A stretch of 14,375 nt of DNA, taken from IMG/VR virus record IMGVR_UViG_2690316131_000006, one strand, 5' to 3'. Positions 6,983 through 14,375 of the stretch are shown here, piece by piece. The stretch's first letter is position 1. The number at the start of each line of letters is the position of its first letter. The position numbers were made by a program, and so were the translations under genes. The notes under the pieces are model-generated. The model saw only the letters and a list, made by a program, of their open reading frames with translations, was not told the DNA's origin and made no database searches. The DNA comes from a virus. Lineage: Duplodnaviria > Heunggongvirae > Uroviricota > Caudoviricetes.

Positions 6983-7087
6983 ATGTCGGATGATATTTCA
7001 CTGGCAATGGAAGGTGCTCTGGCTGTTATTGCTGTTGTGGGCGTTTACTGCCTGGTTGTGTTTTTGATGGATCGACTAGGGAACTGA
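6983..7087 (+). CDS. Small hydrophobic peptide, 34 aa (MSDDISLAMEGALAVIAVVGVYCLVVFLMDRLGN), predicted membrane
   Basis: AGGAGG 4 nt upstream of ATG; one transmembrane-like segment. Not in the ORF track. Confidence 0.45.
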   Translation: MSDDISLAMEGALAVIAVVGVYCLVVFLMDRLGN

Positions 7088-7219
7088 ATTCATTACGATA
7101 TGGGAATTCCCATATCGGGTAAAAACGGTTTGCGGTAAAGCGAGAGTTAAGTAGAATTGCTGCGGGTGCTTGAGGCTGTCTGCCTCGGGCATGCCACCGT
7201 AAGGCAGACAGAGAAAAGC

Positions 7220-7285
7220 CCCAGTTAACATTACGCGTCCTGCAAGACGCCTAACATTAATCTGAGGCCAATTTCATGCTAGACA
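7220..7285 (-). ncRNA. sok: Sok-like antisense RNA of the hok locus (approximate position)
   Basis: Minus-strand promoter-like TTGCCT-17 nt-TAACCT at about 7291..7319 pointing leftward into the hok leader; inferred from hok/sok architecture, ends not determined. Confidence 0.3.
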
Positions 7286-7332
7286 TATGTAGGTTAGCCT
7301 CTTACGCGCCGAAAGGCAAGGAGAAGCAGGCT

Positions 7333-7488
7333 ATGAAGCAGCAAAAGGCGATGTTAATCGCCCTGATCGTCATCTGTATCACCGTCATAGTGACGGCACT
7401 GGTAACGAGGAAAGACCTCTGCGAGGTACGAATCCGAACCGGCCAGACGGAGGTCGCTGTCTTCACAGCTTACGAACCTGAGGAGTAA
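7333..7488 (+). CDS. hok: Hok/Gef-family type I toxin, 51 aa
   Basis: MKQQKAMLIALIVICITVIVTALVTRKDLCEVRIRTGQTEVAVFTAYEPEE: transmembrane helix plus conserved C-terminal motif; AAGGAG Shine-Dalgarno; in-frame upstream ATG at 7276 could be a mok-like start; 3' stem-loops and terminator downstream. Confidence 0.9.
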   Translation: MKQQKAMLIALIVICITVIVTALVTRKDLCEVRIRTGQTEVAVFTAYEPEE

Positions 7489-7557
7489 GAGACCCGGCGA
7501 GGGAGAAATCCCTCGCCACCTCTGATGAATCAGGCATCCTCAACGCACCCGCACTTA

Positions 7558-7583
7558 ACCCGCTTCGGCGGGTTTTGTTTTTT
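7558..7583 (+). terminator. Intrinsic terminator of the hok transcript
   Basis: ACCCGC-ttcg-GCGGGT hairpin followed by TTTGTTTTTT. Confidence 0.7.
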
Positions 7584-7655
7584 CCTGGCATTCTGGTTTA
7601 CAATTCGCACGCCAGCCTGAACAACTGGCACCTGCTGCGCCAGCAGAGACAACCG

Positions 7656-7934
7656 ATGGCGCACGATACCAAATTATACAATTCTGATGATTCTGCCGTC
7701 TTTGCCAGCAGGCGCGGACGGTGTTTTCACGCATTCAAATCTGACTGGTACCAGCATCCCCCATGCACTGAAGAACAGGCCGAATGGCTCATTCAGTGTT
7801 ACCGCAGGCGCGGATGCGAGGTTAAAAAAGCCCTTAGCCTCGACTACCGTCACTGGATAATCTCCGTCAGGCTCCCTTACTCCGAACGGCCACCGCGTCC
7901 GTCCCGCACATTCCAGCAACGGATCTGGAGGTAA
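7656..7934 (+). CDS. Hypothetical nin-region protein, 92 aa
   Basis: Only in-frame ATG after the hok terminator; weak Shine-Dalgarno; stop adjacent to the next start. Confidence 0.45.
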   Translation: MAHDTKLYNSDDSAVFASRRGRCFHAFKSDWYQHPPCTEEQAEWLIQCYRRRGCEVKKALSLDYRHWIISVRLPYSERPPRPSRTFQQRIWR

Positions 7935-7935
7935 T

Positions 7936-8985
7936 GTGCGGGTATTACTTCGACCTGTTCTGGTACCGGAACTCGGTCTGGTTATCGTTAAGCCAGGCCG
8001 TGAATCAATGTCAGCATTCCATAACGGCAGAATACTGGTGGAGCCGGAACCAAAAAGCATGCGAGCTCTGCCGTCCGGGGTTGTACCTGCCGTTCACCAG
8101 CCGCTGGCGGAAGATAAATCACTACTGCCATTTTTCAGCGATGAGCGGGTGAGCCGTGCTGCGGGTGGCGCTGGTGCACTGTCTGACTGGTTATTACGTC
8201 ACGTGAAATCCTGCCAGTGGCTACACGGTGATTATCATCACAGCGAAACCGTCATTCACCGTTACGGTACCGGCGCAATGGTGTTGTGCTGGCACTGCGA
8301 CAACCAGCTGCGTGACCAGACATCCGAATCACTCGAGCAACTTGCTCATCAAAACCTGTCAGCATGGATGATTGACGTCATCGGTCACGCAATAAGCGGT
8401 ACGCAGGAGCGTGAATTATCTCTGGCTGAATTATCCTGGTGGGCGGTCCGCAATCAGGTGGCGGACGCGCTACCGGAAGCGGTATTACGTCGTTCGCTGG
8501 GGTTGCGTGCGGAAAAAATCCGCTCCATGTACCGTGAAAGCGACATCGTACCGGGAGAGCAGACCGCCACCAGCATACTGAAACAGCGCACAAAAAATCT
8601 TGCGCCGCTGCCTCACGCCCACCAGCAACAGAACCCACCACAGGAAAAGACGGTGGTCAGCATTGCCGTTGATCCTGAGTCTCCGGAATCTTTCATGAAA
8701 CGACCTAAACGTCGCCGCTGGGTTAACGAGAAATACACTCGCTGGGTGAAGACACAGCCGTGTGCGTGTTGTGGTAAGCCAGCCGACGATCCCCATCACC
8801 TGATTGGTCATGGTCAGGGCGGAATGGGGACAAAATCTCACGATATTTTCACGCTACCGCTGTGTCGGGAGCATCACAACGAGCTTCATGCGGATCCGCT
8901 GGCGTTCGAAGAAAAGCATGGTTCTCAGGTTGATTTAATTTTTCGTTTTCTTGATCACGCCTTTGCAACTGGCGTGCTTGGGTAA
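7936..8985 (+). CDS. DUF968/YdfU-like protein with C-terminal HNH-like zinc-binding motif
   Basis: GTG start 5 nt after GGAGG; C-terminus ...QPCACCGKPADDPHHLIGHGQG...LPLCREHHNELH has Cys pairs with His-His as in HNH nucleases. Confidence 0.65.
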   Translation: MRVLLRPVLVPELGLVIVKPGRESMSAFHNGRILVEPEPKSMRALPSGVVPAVHQPLAEDKSLLPFFSDERVSRAAGGAGALSDWLLRHVKSCQWLHGDYHHSETVIHRYGTGAMVLCWHCDNQLRDQTSESLEQLAHQNLSAWMIDVIGHAISGTQERELSLAELSWWAVRNQVADALPEAVLRRSLGLRAEKIRSMYRESDIVPGEQTATSILKQRTKNLAPLPHAHQQQNPPQEKTVVSIAVDPESPESFMKRPKRRRWVNEKYTRWVKTQPCACCGKPADDPHHLIGHGQGGMGTKSHDIFTLPLCREHHNELHADPLAFEEKHGSQVDLIFRFLDHAFATGVLG

Positions 8986-8997
8986 AAGAGGTGACTG

Positions 8998-9372
8998 ATG
9001 CTCATAGATTTGGTTTTACCTTACCCGCCGACGGTGAACACTTACTGGCGACGCCGTGGCAGCACATATTTTATCTCGGAGGAGGGAAAGCGTTATCGCC
9101 GGGCTGTGGCGCTTATTGTTCGCCAGCAGCGGCTGAAATTAAGCCTGTCCGGAAGGCTGGCGATAAAGATTATTGCCGAGCCACCGGATAAGCGCCGCCG
9201 TGACTTGGACAATATTCTGAAAGCGCCGCTGGATGCGCTGACGCATGCGGGGTTGCTAATGGACGATGAGCAGTTTGATGAAATCAATATCGTTCGTGCT
9301 CAGCCAGTATCTGGTGGACGTCTGGGGGTGAAGATTTACCCCATAATGCTTGAAGGGCAGGTCAAAAAATGA
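8998..9372 (+). CDS. rusA: RusA-family Holliday junction resolvase
   Basis: 124 aa; PPTVNTYWRRRG...DKRRRDLDNILKAPLDALTHAGLLMDDEQ matches the RusA pattern (…RRDLDN…DAL…DD…); AGAGG Shine-Dalgarno. Confidence 0.85.
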   Translation: MLIDLVLPYPPTVNTYWRRRGSTYFISEEGKRYRRAVALIVRQQRLKLSLSGRLAIKIIAEPPDKRRRDLDNILKAPLDALTHAGLLMDDEQFDEINIVRAQPVSGGRLGVKIYPIMLEGQVKK

Positions 9373-10190
9373 AACTGGAAGATTTACCGAAATACTACTC
9401 CCCAAAATCCCCCGGCCTGACTGATGCATCGGCCTCAACGTCGAAAGATACGCTGAGTATCACTGATGTGATGGCTGCGCAGGGCATGACACAGAATTGG
9501 GCTGAGATGGGGTTTTCTGCGTTCCTTGGGAAAATGGGCATTAGTATGAATGACAGAGAGCGGGCAACAGAATTGCTGACAGAATATGCACTCAGTCGGT
9601 GTGATCGCGTGGCGGCGTTAAGAAAACTCCCGGCAGAAATAAAACCGGCAGTGATGCGTATTATGGCTTCGTATGCGTTTGAAGATTATGCCCGTAGCGC
9701 GGCGAGCAAAAAACAGTGCCCCTGTTGTCACGGAAAAAAATTTATTGAAAGCGAGGTTTTTACAAACAAGATCCAGTATCCGGATGGTAAGCCGCCAGTG
9801 TGGGCAAAGTGCACAAAAGGCGTGTATCCGTCTTACTGGGAGGAATGGAAAAAAGTCAGGGAGGTGGTAAAAGTTGCCTGTCCGGAGTGTGGAGGGAAGG
9901 GGGAGGTTTCCACCGCCTGTAAAGATTGTCGTGGGCGCGGTGTTGCCATTCATCGTGAAGAGTCGGTAAAACGTGGTATGCCTGTTATCAGAGACTGCCA
10001 GCGTTGTGGTGGTCGTGGCTATGAAAGATTACCTTCAACGGAGGCATTTAATGCCATATGTAATGTAACCGATGCCATATCTCTTGATACATGGAAAAAA
10101 ACAGTTAAACGTTTTTACGATACGCTGGTGGTGCAGTTTGATATTGAAGAAGCATGGGCAGAACAACAACTGAAAAAGGTGACCAGATAG
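9369..10190 (+). CDS. Putative late-gene antiterminator (Q-like, QuuQ-type position) with four DnaJ-type CxxCxGxG zinc-finger repeats
   Basis: ATGA overlap with rusA; CPCCHGKK, CPECGGKG, CKDCRGRG, CQRCGGRG; immediately followed by a strong promoter and a terminator. Call is by position. Confidence 0.55.
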   Translation: MKLEDLPKYYSPKSPGLTDASASTSKDTLSITDVMAAQGMTQNWAEMGFSAFLGKMGISMNDRERATELLTEYALSRCDRVAALRKLPAEIKPAVMRIMASYAFEDYARSAASKKQCPCCHGKKFIESEVFTNKIQYPDGKPPVWAKCTKGVYPSYWEEWKKVREVVKVACPECGGKGEVSTACKDCRGRGVAIHREESVKRGMPVIRDCQRCGGRGYERLPSTEAFNAICNVTDAISLDTWKKTVKRFYDTLVVQFDIEEAWAEQQLKKVTR

Positions 10191-10192
10191 CT

Positions 10193-10223
10193 TTGTTGAT
10201 TTTTCCCGAATCTGTGGTAAAAT
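10193..10223 (+). promoter_or_regulatory. Late promoter (pR'-like) with extended -10 (TGgTAAAAT)
   Basis: TTGTTGA -35-like, about 17-18 nt spacer, TGgTAAAAT at 10215..10223, directly after the Q-like stop. Confidence 0.5.
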
Positions 10224-10270
10224 TGCCCTAACGATGGGCGTTTTATGCCTGACGTTAGAAGATTTTTTAC

Positions 10271-10294
10271 ACCCGTCGCCAGGCGGGTTTTTTT
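10271..10294 (+). terminator. tR'-like intrinsic terminator about 45-65 nt downstream of the late promoter
   Basis: ACCCG-tcgccagg-CGGGT hairpin followed by seven T. Confidence 0.55.
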
Positions 10295-10416
10295 ATGACT
10301 GAAATCACGCCAGTACAGTAAACGCGCTGGTGGTTGTGAATACCGGTCTTTCAGCTTGCTGGCTTTTTCGACAAGAGTTATTGGTATGTCACGTTAACCA
10401 GAAAAGGGAAAAAGAC

Positions 10417-10614
10417 ATGCTAAAACAGCAGGATATGACCGAAACCGCCAGAGTGGTGTTTAATGAATTAAGCGTCACCGAACCGGCGACCGTCGGGGAA
10501 ATTGCGCAGAATACTTACCTTTCACGCGAACGTTGCCAGTTAATACTGACCCAGCTTGTTATGGCGGGTCTGGCAGATTATCAGTTCGGTTGTTACAGAC
10601 GCCTTCCGCAGTGA
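10417..10614 (+). CDS. Small winged-helix-like protein, 65 aa
   Basis: ATG 10417 with AAGGG upstream; sequence ...TVGEIAQNTYLSRERCQLILTQLVMAGLADY; its 3' end overlaps a terminator hairpin. Confidence 0.45.
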   Translation: MLKQQDMTETARVVFNELSVTEPATVGEIAQNTYLSRERCQLILTQLVMAGLADYQFGCYRRLPQ

Positions 10615-10626
10615 AGGTTTTTTTTA
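10602..10626 (+). terminator. Intrinsic terminator
   Basis: CCTTC-cgcagt-GAAGG hairpin followed by nine T. Confidence 0.5.
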
Positions 10627-10765
10627 TTTGTGGTAATGGGCGGCTGGTGGGTGTTAGCGGCACCTGCCAGCCATCTGCTCATGCGTTGGGGTCACAAGCA
10701 AACCTCAGGCCCATCTGCTTTGCGCAAAAGCAGAACGAGCCTATCAGAGAAGTGCTTACTGATCT

Positions 10766-11791
10766 ATGGTCAATACTGTAAAAATATCCAGTTGTGAATT
10801 AATCAACGCTGATTGCCTGGAATTTATCCAGACCTTACCGGAAAACTCTGTCGATCTGATAGTCACAGACCCGCCATACTTTAAAGTGAAGCCCGAAGGC
10901 TGGGATAACCAGTGGAAGGGCGACGATGATTACCTGAAATGGCTGGACCAGTGTCTGGCGCAGTTCTGGCGGTTACTGAAGCCTGCCGGAAGTCTTTACC
11001 TGTTCTGTGGTCATCGCCTGGCATCTGATATCGAAATCATGATGCGCGAACGCTTTAACGTGCTGAACCATATCATCTGGGCGAAGCCGTCCGGACGCTG
11101 GAACGGGTGCAGTAAGGAAAGCCTGCGGGCGTATTTTCCCGCCACAGAGCGTATTCTGTTTGCTGAACATTATCAGGGGCCATACCAGCCAAAAAATGGC
11201 GGCTATGCGGCAAAGGAGCGCGAGCTTAAACAGCATGTGATGTCTCCGCTGATTTCTTACTTTCGTGATGCGCGTGAATCACTGGGGATAACGTCGAAAC
11301 AGATAGCGGAAGCCACCGGAAAGAAAAACATGGTGTCGCACTGGTTTGGTGCCCGCCAGTGGCAGTTACCGAACGAGGATGATTACAGAAAACTGCAGGC
11401 GTTGTTTGCGCGTGTTGCAGCAGAAAAACATCAACGCGGGGAACTGGAAAAGCCACACCACCAGCTGGTCAGCACATACAGTGAACTTAACCGGCAATAT
11501 GCCAGCCTGCTGGAGGAGTACAAATCTTTGCGGCGTTATTTTTCTGTATCGGCTGCTGTTCCGTATACGGATGTCTGGATGTATAAGCCTGTACAGTATT
11601 ATCCGGGCAAACACCCCTGTGAAAAACCGGCAGATATGTTGCGTCAGATAATAGAGGCCAGCAGTCGTCCGGGTGATTTGGTTGCCGACTTTTTTATGGG
11701 GTCAGGTTCCACGATAAAAGCCGCGCTTTCGCTTGGTCGTCGGGCAATAGGCGTTGTGAGCTTGAGGCTGAACGGTTTGAGCAGACGGTGA
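10766..11791 (+). CDS. DNA methyltransferase, beta-class amino-methyltransferase (N6-adenine or N4-cytosine)
   Basis: N-terminal motif IV DLIVTDPPYF and C-terminal motif I DLVADFFMGSGST (order IV then I); 341 aa; no adjacent restriction endonuclease seen. Confidence 0.85.
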   Translation: MVNTVKISSCELINADCLEFIQTLPENSVDLIVTDPPYFKVKPEGWDNQWKGDDDYLKWLDQCLAQFWRLLKPAGSLYLFCGHRLASDIEIMMRERFNVLNHIIWAKPSGRWNGCSKESLRAYFPATERILFAEHYQGPYQPKNGGYAAKERELKQHVMSPLISYFRDARESLGITSKQIAEATGKKNMVSHWFGARQWQLPNEDDYRKLQALFARVAAEKHQRGELEKPHHQLVSTYSELNRQYASLLEEYKSLRRYFSVSAAVPYTDVWMYKPVQYYPGKHPCEKPADMLRQIIEASSRPGDLVADFFMGSGSTIKAALSLGRRAIGVVSLRLNGLSRR

Positions 11792-11938
11792 GCGAGATAA
11801 GAGAAATTCTGACGTGTAAAGCTGTTGATTGATTAATTAATGCTTATTTTTTCATAAGTCTTGTTGCAATATATAAGTATGGGGTGTAAAGTTGTTCTCG
11901 AAAATAATCATGTTTTCTCACGAATCAGAGGGGGGATA

Positions 11939-12199
11939 ATGATTGAGGTTCGATGGACAAGGACAGCCCTGAAGCAGTTACTTCGTGTGGATACGCGGTA
12001 TCGGCAGGCGATAAAGGATAAGGTCGGTGCGCTAAAGGATTTTCCTCTGGTAGCCATGGATTTTAAAAAGCTATCAGGGAGTGACAATCGATTCCGTTTG
12101 AGGGTCGGCGTGTACAGGGTTATTTTTGATGTTGAGGATGGTGATCCTGTTGTCCTGGATATTAAGGAAATTAAGCGCAGAAGCACAACCACATACTAA
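11939..12199 (+). CDS. RelE/ParE-superfamily type II toxin (HigB-like, toxin-first order)
   Basis: 86 aa; ...NRFRLRVGVYRVIFDVEDGDPVVLDIKEIKRR typical of the RelE/ParE fold; GAGGGGGG Shine-Dalgarno. Confidence 0.8.
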   Translation: MIEVRWTRTALKQLLRVDTRYRQAIKDKVGALKDFPLVAMDFKKLSGSDNRFRLRVGVYRVIFDVEDGDPVVLDIKEIKRRSTTTY

Positions 12200-12259
12200 G
12201 GGAGGCTGGCGGGAGACCGCCAGTTTGCTGAACGACATTCAATCGCGAAAGGCAATGAT

Positions 12260-12634
12260 ATGAAAAACAGTGTCCAGTTTATTACTGATAATGCCGGTGT
12301 TAGAACCGGGGTCATTATGTCAGTTGCTGAATATGAACGGCTGTTAAGTCTGGCAGATCCTGATGATGATTTTGAAAGCATCCAGTATGAAGCCGGAGAG
12401 AATGACAATGAAACAATACCTCATGAAGTAGTATCCATCATGATTGATGATGATGTGTCATTGTTGGCAGCATGGCGGATTTACAGGCGAATGACTCAAC
12501 AGGAAGTGGCGGAGCGCCTGGGGGTTAAACAGTCAGCCGTATCTCAGTTTGAGAGAGCAGGAGCTCCGCGAAAATCAACACTGGAAAAACTGGCTGAGAT
12601 TTACAACTGCCGACCAAATCAGTTGGCTGATTAA
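12260..12634 (+). CDS. HigA-like antitoxin with C-terminal XRE helix-turn-helix
   Basis: 124 aa; ...MTQQEVAERLGVKQSAVSQFERAGAPRKSTLEKLAEIY; directly downstream of the toxin. Confidence 0.8.
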   Translation: MKNSVQFITDNAGVRTGVIMSVAEYERLLSLADPDDDFESIQYEAGENDNETIPHEVVSIMIDDDVSLLAAWRIYRRMTQQEVAERLGVKQSAVSQFERAGAPRKSTLEKLAEIYNCRPNQLAD

Positions 12635-12779
12635 TCCTGAGTTTGGTTTTCGTAGCGATTGCATTTTTCTTATCTGCTTGCCGTTGTAGGTAGCGTGTAT
12701 TTGCATGTTGTTTTGTAGTTAACCTTATGGTTGGCTGAATTTTGTTCATCAATAAAAAATATCCCTCTCTGATCTTTAA

Positions 12780-12805
12780 GGTTCGCTTTGGCGGACCTTT
12801 TTTTT
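12780..12805 (+). terminator. Intrinsic terminator
   Basis: GGTTCGC-tttg-GCGGACC (one G·U pair) followed by eight T. Confidence 0.55.
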
Positions 12806-12941
12806 ATTTCCGCGCCACGCCCGGCGTACATCAAAAACCACAGAGCCTTTCAGGGGTGAGCTTACGGGATGGTCAGTGTGACTTTCTCTGTGGGCTGGTC
12901 ACCCCCGGGCGCAGGCTCACCCACTAAAAGGAAAAGTCACG

Positions 12942-13373
12942 ATGTTTGGTATTTTCAAAAAGAAAACCCGCAGAGCAGCAACTGAAATTAAAAAGTTTGA
13001 GAAACGCGATCTGGCACAGGCGGTTATTAATGCTGCCTACCTGGTGGCCTATGCAGATGGTGAATGTGAGACTTCAGAGAAAGCGAAGATCGAACAGGTA
13101 TTACGTAACCAGCCAGCATTGTCCGCATTTACGTCAGAAATTAATGCCATCAGTGCCACGATCACAGGTCAGCTTGACACCAATTTTAAAATTGGTCGTC
13201 GTGCAGCGTTGCGTGAAATTGAAGATGTGAAACACGATACGCGTGAAGCGGAAGACGTGCTGGATGTGGCGGTGGCCATTGCTGAAGCAGATGGTGAAAT
13301 TGAGCCGGAAGAGCGTAAGGTTCTGGAAGAGATTGCTGGTGTTCTTGGCCTGCGACTGGAGAACCACCTGTGA
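12942..13373 (+). CDS. TerB-family (tellurite-resistance TerB-like) protein, 143 aa
   Basis: Two acidic ADGE motifs (AYADGECETSEKAKIEQ and AEADGEIEPEERKVLEEI) typical of TerB; AAAAGGAAAAG upstream of ATG. Confidence 0.75.
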   Translation: MFGIFKKKTRRAATEIKKFEKRDLAQAVINAAYLVAYADGECETSEKAKIEQVLRNQPALSAFTSEINAISATITGQLDTNFKIGRRAALREIEDVKHDTREAEDVLDVAVAIAEADGEIEPEERKVLEEIAGVLGLRLENHL

Positions 13374-13537
13374 CGGTAAAACTGCGTCTGGCCGCTGTGG
13401 CACTCCTGCTGTTTCTGGTGGTGATGGTGGATTTCACCAGCAGGATCATGTCGGTGCTGGCGGATGGAGTGCTGGTCTGCGGCATTGTGGTATTGCTGTG
13501 GCCGGTGATAAAAAGAAACAGCCTGCATAATGCTTGA
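13370..13537 (+). CDS. Possible small membrane protein, 55 aa, translationally coupled to the TerB-like gene
   Basis: GTG overlaps the TerB stop (GTGA); VTVKLRLAAVALLLFLVVMVDFTSRIMSVLADGVLVCGIVVLLWPVIKRNSLHNA has two hydrophobic segments. Not in the ORF track as such. Confidence 0.35.
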   Translation: MTVKLRLAAVALLLFLVVMVDFTSRIMSVLADGVLVCGIVVLLWPVIKRNSLHNA

Positions 13538-13704
13538 TTTTTTTGTTTGCTGTTTATTAAAAACACTTCTGCATGGTGAATCCCCCTGTGCGGTGGGGCA
13601 ATCAGCAAGAAGGAATATGGGGTAATCGCGGATTCAGGTGCTGATACTGAATTCACCGGGAGGCACCCGGCACCATGCAAGAAAAAGAATGTGCATGCAA
13701 ACAT

Positions 13705-13728
13705 GCCCCTCTCCGGAGGGGCTTTTTT
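13705..13728 (+). terminator. Intrinsic terminator
   Basis: Perfect GCCCCTC-tccg-GAGGGGC hairpin followed by six T. Confidence 0.65.
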
Positions 13729-13732
13729 ATGG

Positions 13733-13760
13733 GTAAAAAAATGCCCGAATGGGTTCGGGC
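13733..13760 (-). terminator. Convergent (minus-strand) terminator-like hairpin
   Basis: GCCCGAA-tggg-TTCGGGC, which on the minus strand is followed by TTTTTTT (13733..13739). Confidence 0.4.
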
Positions 13761-13944
13761 AATAGCATGAGATACTGATATTGTTGTGTTGTTATCGTGT
13801 GGATTTTAACCAGGGTTTATCAGGCTGCGCAACTGCGTGGCCTTTTTTCATTTCTTGGGCTGTAGTCCCCGTGTGTCATTCAGGCTTCCGGACTACAGCC
13901 CACTCCATATCTGATTTAATACACTATCCCGGCCGGGAGGAATA

Positions 13945-14375
13945 ATGACATTTAAACATTATGATGTTGTCAGGGCGGCGTCGCCGTCAGACCTTGCGGA
14001 AAAGCTGACACACAAACTGAAAGAGGGCTGGCAGCCGTTTGGTAGTCCGGTGGCCATAACCCCTTATACCCTGATGCAGGCGATTGCAGCAGAAGGTGAT
14101 GTGGTCGTCAGTGGTGCAACTGAGCCGGAGTGGTACTACGTCATCGTACTGGCCGGGCAGTCCAATGCAATGGCTTACGGTGAAGGGCTTCCGCTTCCGG
14201 ATTCATACGATGCTCCGGATCCGCGCATTAAACAGCTGGCGCGCCGCAGTACAGTGACGCCGGGTGGGGCTGCCTGCAGATATAACGATATTATTCCGGC
14301 CGACCACTGCCTGCATGATGTGCAGGATATGAGTACGCTGAATCATCCGAAGGCAGACCTGAGCAAAGGGCAGTA
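13945..14375 (+). CDS. Partial (5' end only) NanS-p-like esterase: N-terminal DUF1737-like domain followed by the start of an SGNH/sialate O-acetylesterase domain
   Basis: GGGAGGA Shine-Dalgarno; MTFKHYDVVRAASPSDLAEKLTHKLKEGWQPFGSP... then ...YYVIVLAGQSNAMAYGEG (GQSN block); open to the window end. Confidence 0.7.
   Translation, partial: MTFKHYDVVRAASPSDLAEKLTHKLKEGWQPFGSPVAITPYTLMQAIAAEGDVVVSGATEPEWYYVIVLAGQSNAMAYGEGLPLPDSYDAPDPRIKQLARRSTVTPGGAACRYNDIIPADHCLHDVQDMSTLNHPKADLSKGQ

Follow-up and report, generated by a model that had tools for sequence, protein, structure and literature searches.

What is the function of a gene whose product carries four chaperone-like cysteine repeats and which sits at the position expected for a phage late-gene antiterminator? 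The gene lies in a DNA stretch of 14,375 nucleotides (the window) from the virus record IMGVR_UViG_2690316131_000006 (Caudoviricetes), where the open reading frame 9369–10190 on the plus strand codes for 273 amino acids (aa) plus a stop codon. An earlier note had described the product as a Q-like antiterminator with a DnaJ-type zinc finger, had made the Q call by position and had placed a promoter–terminator (pR'/tR') unit of the Q-utilisation (qut) type directly behind it. We suggest that the protein is a late-gene antiterminator of the lambda family (Q-lambda type) and that the 100 bp after its stop codon are the cognate Q-utilisation cassette, a reading to which we assign a probability of about 0.9. 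This assignment is carried by homology, by the predicted fold, by the conservation of eight cysteines and of the cis elements, and by the covariation of the cis elements with the helix–turn–helix (HTH) of the protein.

The gene itself is already known and annotated in prophages. The protein is identical to RefSeq WP_000762928.1, which the prokaryotic genome annotation pipeline (PGAP) names "antitermination protein", and the value as a discovery is small; this RefSeq-annotated antiterminator is present in more than a thousand complete Escherichia coli genomes, among them those of enterohemorrhagic and enteropathogenic strains, and in an Stx2a phage. Of practical use is that the family is known in structure and mechanism only from lambda Q with its short arm, while in nature the long-arm form encoded here is the dominant one.

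Relation of the protein to lambda Q

The gene and the segments of its product are as follows.

9369–10190 (+): Q gene, lambda-family antitermination protein in the long-arm form, 273 aa; assigned by homology and fold
9369–9500 (+): aa 1–44, counterpart of the lambda Q segment which NusA refolds into a torus or nozzle in the RNA-exit channel; from the alignment with lambda Q, function by homology
9549–9707 (+): aa 61–113, first half of the Q body (helical bundle); from the lambda Q alignment and the model
9708–9911 (+): aa 114–181, additional zinc-ribbon module without lambda Q counterpart, comprising repeat 1, a long β-hairpin (aa 125–136 / 159–170) with a variable tip, and repeat 2; from the gap in the lambda Q alignment, the cysteine conservation and the secondary structure of the model
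9912–10028 (+): aa 182–220, lambda-type zinc-ribbon arm with repeats 3 and 4; aligned with the lambda Q arm and its ligands C118/C121/C144/C147
10029–10187 (+): aa 221–273, second half of the body with the HTH region, motif ISLDTWKKT; from the lambda Q alignment and the model

The positional Q call is borne out by sequence as well as by structure comparison. The protein matches the Pfam family PF03589 (Antitermination protein Q) with 168 bits (cut-off 26.7, E 4.7e-50), and PHROG 127 ("anti-termination protein Q-like") spans the entire protein with E 2e-112. Lambda Q ranks first among the solved structures (7UBM, E 9e-41) and aligns in two blocks: residues 1–113 correspond to lambda residues 1–113 and residues 182–273 to lambda residues 116–207. 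The first block alone reaches E 1e-22 and 84.5 bits, and the N-terminal 44 residues are well conserved. From this alignment a torus-forming function can be inferred for the N-terminal segment. An AlphaFold2 model computed from 49 homologues has a mean pLDDT (predicted local distance difference test) of 90.6, and its top Foldseek match is 7ubn_Q (E 4e-15, target-normalised template modelling (TM) score 0.80), followed by the remaining lambda Q entries. 7UBN is the engaged, torus-folded state of lambda Q.

Of the features which define the family, those of sequence and structure are found here: a helical body, an HTH and a Cys4 zinc-ribbon arm, as seen in the model, in the Foldseek matches and in the invariant cysteines, and a gene that is followed by a promoter, a sigma-dependent pause element and an intrinsic terminator. 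In lambda Q the helical body bears the HTH, residues 114–152 form the zinc-ribbon "arm" which contacts positions 11–13 of the Q-binding element (QBE), and the tip of the arm touches the repositioned sigma region 4 (PMC9388147). Of the other Q proteins suggested for comparison, QuuQ of the K-12 Qin prophage shares 40% identity, and no similarity to Q82-type or Q21-type proteins was found in the Pfam, NCBIfam, PDB sequence and Foldseek searches. The antiterminators of the latter types (phages 82 and 21; Gifsy-1 AntQ) are alike in genomic position and regulatory logic but belong to unrelated protein families.

The earlier note had also pointed out four CxxCxGxG-like repeats, and all four are present. 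Repeat 1 is CPCCHGKK (aa 117–124, C117/C120, nt 9717–9740), repeat 2 CPECGGKG (aa 171–178, C171/C174, nt 9879–9902), repeat 3 CKDCRGRG (aa 184–191, C184/C187, nt 9918–9941) and repeat 4 CQRCGGRG (aa 210–217, C210/C213, nt 9996–10019). The CxxCxGxG pattern is exact in three of them (2, 3 and 4); repeat 1 reads CxxCxGxx here and CxxCxGxG in most homologues. The eight repeat cysteines are invariant or nearly so in 30–49 homologues down to 26% identity, with repeat 3 occurring as CxxC or CxC; the protein has one more cysteine, C148, which lacks conservation. The two CxxC knuckles of lambda Q have their counterparts in repeats 3 and 4, with the same 26-residue spacing. Repeats 1 and 2 are held by a 68-residue insert (aa 114–181) at the base of the arm, and the linker between them ranges from 6 to about 55 residues among the homologues.

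In the model the strands 125–136 and 159–170 form a hairpin between repeats 1 and 2, and short strands flank each knuckle. As this layout is that of a classical zinc ribbon, we suggest that the protein probably has two zinc sites with sequential pairing of the repeats (1+2 and 3+4), that is, two predicted zinc ions per monomer. The arm-only model superposes on the lambda Q arm with 1.9 Å over 41 residues. Judged from the model and the alignment, repeats 3 and 4 would represent the lambda Q zinc ribbon, and repeats 1 and 2 together with the long variable β-hairpin an accessory ribbon inserted at the arm base. Concerning an origin by internal duplication, a single pairwise BLASTP comparison of the module with the arm gave similarity at the motif level only (E 0.001–0.005).

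The same repeats could be taken as the mark of a DnaJ-like zinc-finger chaperone or holdase, a protein which binds unfolded substrates and is unrelated to antitermination. Several weak matches point this way: the Pfam family DnaJ_CXXCXGXG (PF00684) scores 30.6 bits, TIGR02349 gives E 5.6e-6, and a profile of the arm finds E. coli DnaJ (1EXK, E 1.9e-5). Moreover, a protein database lists PF00684 among the precomputed matches of most homologues, and the public records of P0029 and Klebsiella phage ST13-OXA48phi12.4 (H55) name the homologous proteins "chaperone protein DnaJ" or "molecular chaperone". However, the Pfam score is below the gathering cut-off of 32.7, the TIGR02349 score is 26 with a cut-off of 377, and the arm profile finds the lambda Q arm first (E 3e-11). 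The alignment with 1EXK is driven by the motifs, has a high compositional bias and does not pair the repeats one-to-one (Q repeat 1 with DnaJ repeat 1, 2 with 3, 3 with 4). Foldseek comparison with DnaJ proteins is not significant for either the whole model or the arm alone (E 0.5–0.6, root mean square deviation about 10 Å). The Pfam and NCBIfam searches gave no match to a J domain or a DnaJ_C domain in the 273-aa protein, and there is no G/F region, no C-terminal substrate-binding domain and no other Hsp40 feature. In addition, the DNA-binding arm of lambda Q itself has two of these motifs, and the remainder of the protein corresponds to lambda Q over its whole length. We therefore reject the chaperone function, which appears extremely improbable.

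Of the label "DnaJ-type" only the four-repeat motif pattern stands, as the resemblance is at the motif level. The cysteine-rich domain of DnaJ (PF00684; 1EXK) and anti-TRAP share with the window protein the zinc-binding CxxCxGxG repeats and the placement of adjacent repeats, 5–6 residues apart, in different zinc sites (here predicted ones), but the profile similarity is borderline. In DnaJ the zinc pairing is nested (1+4, 2+3) in a V-shaped hairpin, whereas the pairing predicted here is sequential, and the module sits in a DNA-binding arm, unlike the DnaJ domain. The CxxCxGxG repeats are the reason why some homologue records carry DnaJ or chaperone names, and these names are probably occasional mis-annotations of Q proteins.

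The four-repeat arm is not an unusual variant but, as far as the collected homologues tell, the majority form of lambda-family Q. In a phage collection 131 of the 249 matching records have a full-length match in a single piece, including HK225, mEp237, SfV, ST104, mEp460, phiEt88 and Stx2c phages, and the match is in two pieces, as expected for the short form, in lambda, P22, HK97 and HK620. Among cluster representatives at 50% identity with a length of at least about 195 aa there are about six long forms per short form. The long-arm proteins of HK225, mEp237, SfV, ST104, mEp460 and phiEt88 are sequence relatives with 38–62% identity by tblastn and are annotated as Q or late gene regulator. 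Lambda Q (4MO1, 7UBJ–7UBN) has about 40% identity over residues 1–113 and 182–273 of the window protein and shares the predicted fold including the N-terminal torus segment and the zinc-ligand cysteines of the arm, but is devoid of the 68-aa second zinc-ribbon module. YdfT/QuuQ (b1559) of the K-12 Qin prophage is a long-arm protein with all four repeats, and its 40% identity extends over the full length; it differs in its length of 250 aa, a shorter hairpin between repeats 1 and 2 and the HTH sequence LTDYQWYKG. YdfT is uncharacterised and encoded in a cryptic prophage.

A locus of Pectobacterium polonicum (L050; NZ_CP139173, 2501–3313) encodes a protein which over its first 113 and its last 92 residues is almost the same as lambda Q and has the two-repeat module in addition. 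Within about 120 nt downstream it faces a lambda-like promoter and QBE (TTGACA-AGTTGAATAACATTGGG-TAAATT-N6-AACAAT). This locus appears to be a natural variant of the type "lambda Q plus module", suggesting that the module is a separable cassette which does not set the DNA specificity. Lambda does without the accessory ribbon, and the Pectobacterium protein shows it to be separable; its role is therefore most likely that of an auxiliary contact. More tentatively, aa 114–181 may be a functional module which alters Q loading, for instance through an additional contact to upstream DNA, the repositioned sigma region 4, the β flap or NusA; lambda Q would then be a reduced derivative rather than the typical form. 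We consider this possible but rather doubtful.

A further group of loci (L063–L081) carries 621-nt genes identical to lambda Q. Their contigs are either short or about 48.5 kb long, and the assemblies bear labels such as Bacillota, Bradyrhizobium, Shewanella, Kitasatospora and Segatella. These genes are almost certainly phage lambda DNA contaminating the assemblies.

The cassette downstream of the gene

The elements between the stop codon and the end of the terminator are the following.

10196–10223 (+): pR'-type sigma-70 promoter with -35 TTGATT (10196–10201), a 16-nt spacer and an extended -10, TG (10215–10216) plus TAAAAT (10218–10223), reading TGgTAAAAT (10215–10223)
10202–10216 (+): candidate Q-binding element TTTCCCGAATCTGTG in the promoter spacer; from conservation and covariation with the HTH
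10230–10238 (+): sigma-dependent pause element AACGAT (inferred +1 to +6) followed by GGG, that is AACGATGGG, six bases after the -10; identical to lambda pR' at equal offset from the -10
10230–10256 (+): predicted 5' hairpin of the pR' RNA, in which the bases of the pause element form the 5' arm
10271–10295 (+): tR'-type intrinsic terminator with a 7-bp stem and a 4-nt loop (10271–10288) and seven T (U7 in the RNA, 10289–10295), corresponding to +42 to +66

The -35 element begins six bases past the stop codon of Q, and the terminator, which had been described as lying about 50 nt downstream, indeed starts 48 nt after the -10. The order of the elements is that of lambda: Q gene, promoter with embedded binding site, AACGATGGG pause element at equal offset and intrinsic terminator. 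Lambda pR' reads TTGACT, 17 nt, TAAATT, 6 nt, AACGATGGG. The cassettes differ in the length of the spacer (16 nt in the window, 17 in lambda) and in its sequence (TTTCCCGAATCTGTG versus TATTGAATAAAATTGGG), in the HTH of the cognate protein (ISLDTWKKT versus LTQPTWSRT) and in the position of the terminator (about +65 versus +194). In K-12 Qin, ydfT is followed by TTTGCA, 17 nt, TAAAAT, 6 nt, AACGATGGG, a hairpin and a terminator, again with another spacer sequence.

Taken singly, these elements would prove little. One promoter-like match was found in 2 kb where 2.7 are expected by chance, and AACGATGGG occurs in 33 of 200 shuffles of the window. The site stands above chance because AACGATGGG is located at exactly the lambda offset from the -10 and because dozens of genera have conserved the entire block behind their Q homologues. 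Relatives of Q are encoded at 60 genome loci. Where the Q protein is 50–63% identical, the block TTTACT-TTTCC[CG]GAA[TA]CTGTG-TAATTT-N6-AACGATGGG is found within 80 nt of the stop codon, and a GC-rich terminator is present at +28 to +60 in most of these loci. The genera with the conserved cassette include Klebsiella, Enterobacter, Kluyvera, Silvania, Leclercia, Yokenella and others. The earlier proposal of a pR'/tR' unit is thus supported by the arrangement of -10, spacer and AACGATGGG, which is near-identical to lambda pR', and by its comparative conservation.

The lambda QBE lies between the -35 and the -10 (PMC9388147). In the window the corresponding sequence TTTCCCGAATCTGTG has a single occurrence. 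Among 28 distinct loci the conservation of the spacer block is 90% or more, in contrast to the variable discriminator and upstream DNA. In addition, the spacer changes together with the HTH of the protein: [DA]TW[KE]K is paired with TTTCCNGAA in 35 of 36 loci, QPTWSR with the lambda-type spacer TGAATAA in 4 of 4, SWSRNWKPF with GCATAAAAC in 4 of 4 and PETTWRR with GTGGCGAT in 4 of 5. As the spacer is conserved across genera and covaries with the HTH region, TTTCCCGAATCTGTG is likely to be the Q-binding element. The lambda-type pair includes proteins of 207 aa as well as of 271/283 aa, and therefore the extra module does not determine which QBE is used.

By homology with the Q-lambda structures (PMC9388147) the cassette might work as follows. 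RNA polymerase with sigma-70 would start transcription at about 10230, sigma region 2 would re-bind the non-template strand at the -10-like AACGAT, and a pause of the complex would follow near 10245–10246 (+16/+17). Q would bind TTTCCCGAATCTGTG in the promoter spacer with its HTH body and zinc-ribbon arm and dock on the sigma-paused complex, whereupon its N-terminal 44 residues would refold, probably with the help of NusA, to form a nozzle on the RNA-exit channel. The modified polymerase would then pass the terminator at +42 to +66, a terminator-like site at 10601–10618 and later terminators, and would traverse the cargo genes (methyltransferase, RelE/antitoxin, TerB) to reach the lysis and morphogenesis genes. 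Without Q, transcription would end at tR' and yield an RNA of about 65 nt that folds into two hairpins. If the protein acts as Q, terminator read-through would depend on TTTCCCGAA and on the AACGAT element. The coordinates of the candidate QBE, the pause element and tR' can be used for expression studies of late genes, toxins or cargo in these prophages.

Several points weigh against the assignment as Q protein and cassette. The promoter, which the earlier note had called strong, does have the extended -10 TGgTAAAAT, but its -35 is weak (4 of 6 positions) and its spacer has 16 nt. Transcription start and pause site are placed by homology with lambda, and the zinc pairing follows from the predicted secondary structure and the analogy to lambda Q. 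The covariation of HTH and spacer may in part stem from the joint inheritance of neighbouring DNA and is supportive rather than a proof. Finally, in the searched literature no functional study of a long-arm Q and no structural study of the extra module was found, including under "quuQ" and the two-zinc arm.

It is also conceivable that the protein looks intact but is decayed or re-purposed, that is, that it is inactive or a plain DNA-binding regulator of the adjacent promoter and that no antitermination takes place in this strain. Many lambdoid prophages of E. coli are defective, the homologous YdfT resides in the cryptic Qin prophage, and the function of the long form rests on homology. On the other side, the reading frame has its full length, all segments used by lambda Q for loading (N-terminal torus segment, body, arm and C-terminus) are conserved, and the cis cassette is intact. 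The protein is found in thousands of genomes and in inducible phages: its cluster at 90% identity has 4648 member sequences, and the record of the Stx2a-converting phage Stx2_EH1910 contains it with 100% aa identity under the name quuQ. Moreover, lysis and terminase genes are complete in the neighbouring copy of the prophage. We consider a loss of function quite improbable and retain the assignment as an antiterminator with its cassette.

The short pR' RNA

Lysogens of lambda, 21, 82 and P22 make short pR' transcripts, and in Stx phages such a transcript, StxS, is an Hfq-binding regulator (PMC7547250). This raises the question whether the promoter–terminator unit is mainly a small-RNA gene from which a constitutive two-hairpin RNA of about 65 nt is made that acts in trans like StxS, a role which would be compatible with that of a qut site. 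The predicted terminated RNA has two hairpins with -21.3 kcal/mol and folds better than shuffled sequences (z -2.8), and the 5' hairpin recurs across the family. Against this function, no Rfam family matched the pR' RNA, and the segment that links the 5' hairpin to the terminator lacks conservation in the related loci, a point against a conserved seed. By analogy with StxS and the 6S RNA of lambda an action in trans may occur, but a main role as a regulatory RNA appears unlikely, though less so than the loss of Q function discussed above. Judged from the loci compared, a short terminated RNA is normal for this family, and it is the 194-nt 6S RNA of lambda that is the long outlier.

In the predicted 5' hairpin the first 4–6 nt of the RNA, AACGA(T), pair with about +19 to +27, and the same pairing is seen in lambda (L002, 1389–1412) and in K-12 Qin (L083, about 3396–3422, minus strand). 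At least four of the first six nucleotides are paired in the minimum free energy fold at 20 of 27 distinct lambda-family pR' starts, compared with 28% when the downstream part is shuffled; this folding-based test is more supportive than an exchange of the arms between loci, although the relatedness of the sequences confounds it. Where the pause element varies, its partner often varies to match (AATGA/TCATT, GATGA/TCATC, AACAG/CTGTT, TCGTG/CACGA). The arm-swap test for covariation did not discriminate, as the mean helix was 4.9 with the own arm and 4.4 with swapped arms. Thus, the recurrent pairing of the pause-element bases is only suggestive. A hairpin which sequesters the pause-element sequence may have a role in the stability of the late transcript or in the escape from the pause. 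No description of a pR' 5' hairpin was found in the searched papers.

Genomic setting and neighbouring RNA genes

The window belongs to a lambdoid prophage of E. coli. Its bases 9000–10700 are 100% identical to several complete E. coli chromosomes, and of 5426 complete genomes 1430 contain at least 80% of this region. Over its right half (6884–14375) the window has 99.5% identity to strain E110019. Upstream of Q lies rusA, coding for a RusA resolvase, whose stop codon overlaps the Q reading frame by 4 nt, and a holin, a lysozyme and a terminase gene are found downstream in the isogenic prophage. A DUF968 gene precedes Q in the window, as does its counterpart ydfU before ydfT in K-12 Qin.

10417–10614 (+): first open reading frame of the putative Q-dependent transcription unit; its 65-aa product is annotated as hypothetical in RefSeq and as "TrmB family transcriptional regulator" in a phiP27 record

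The end of this reading frame falls inside a second terminator-like hairpin (10601–10618) with a run of eight T. This hairpin would be a second barrier, which is expected to be passable only to the Q-modified polymerase. Between Q and the lysis genes (about 10766–13540, by identity with L001 11267–14037) the cargo genes encode a DNA methyltransferase, a toxin of the RelE family together with an HTH partner, a member of the TerB family and a DUF3927 protein, and all these genes are on the Q-dependent strand.

Further RNA genes were recognised with Rfam. STnc100 matches at 13542–13734 (+) with 142 bits, and convergent to it the anti-GcvB small RNA AgvB matches at 13736–13797 (-) with 96 bits; an AsxR match is sub-threshold. 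We considered the STnc100 element as a second, orphan pR' unit but rejected this, as its homologue in the Stx1 phage BP-4795 lies between stxB and a nanS-p homologue and not after Q; the single occurrence of the QBE candidate in the window also disfavours it. The region 13542–13797 rather appears to be the small-RNA region that follows the stx locus, here in a prophage without stx. An isrK-like match at 7497–7578 (+) is sub-threshold (27.7 bits versus 50). Gifsy-1 AntQ/IsrK was rejected as a characterised relative because AntQ is annotated as Q82-like and this isrK match is not downstream of Q. In the left part of the window DicF is found at 323–374 (-) with 76 bits, and beside it there is a weak STnc100-like match at 116–325 (-) with 34 bits, which is below the threshold. 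The sok antitoxin RNA of the hokD locus is located at 7164–7338 (+) with 114 bits.

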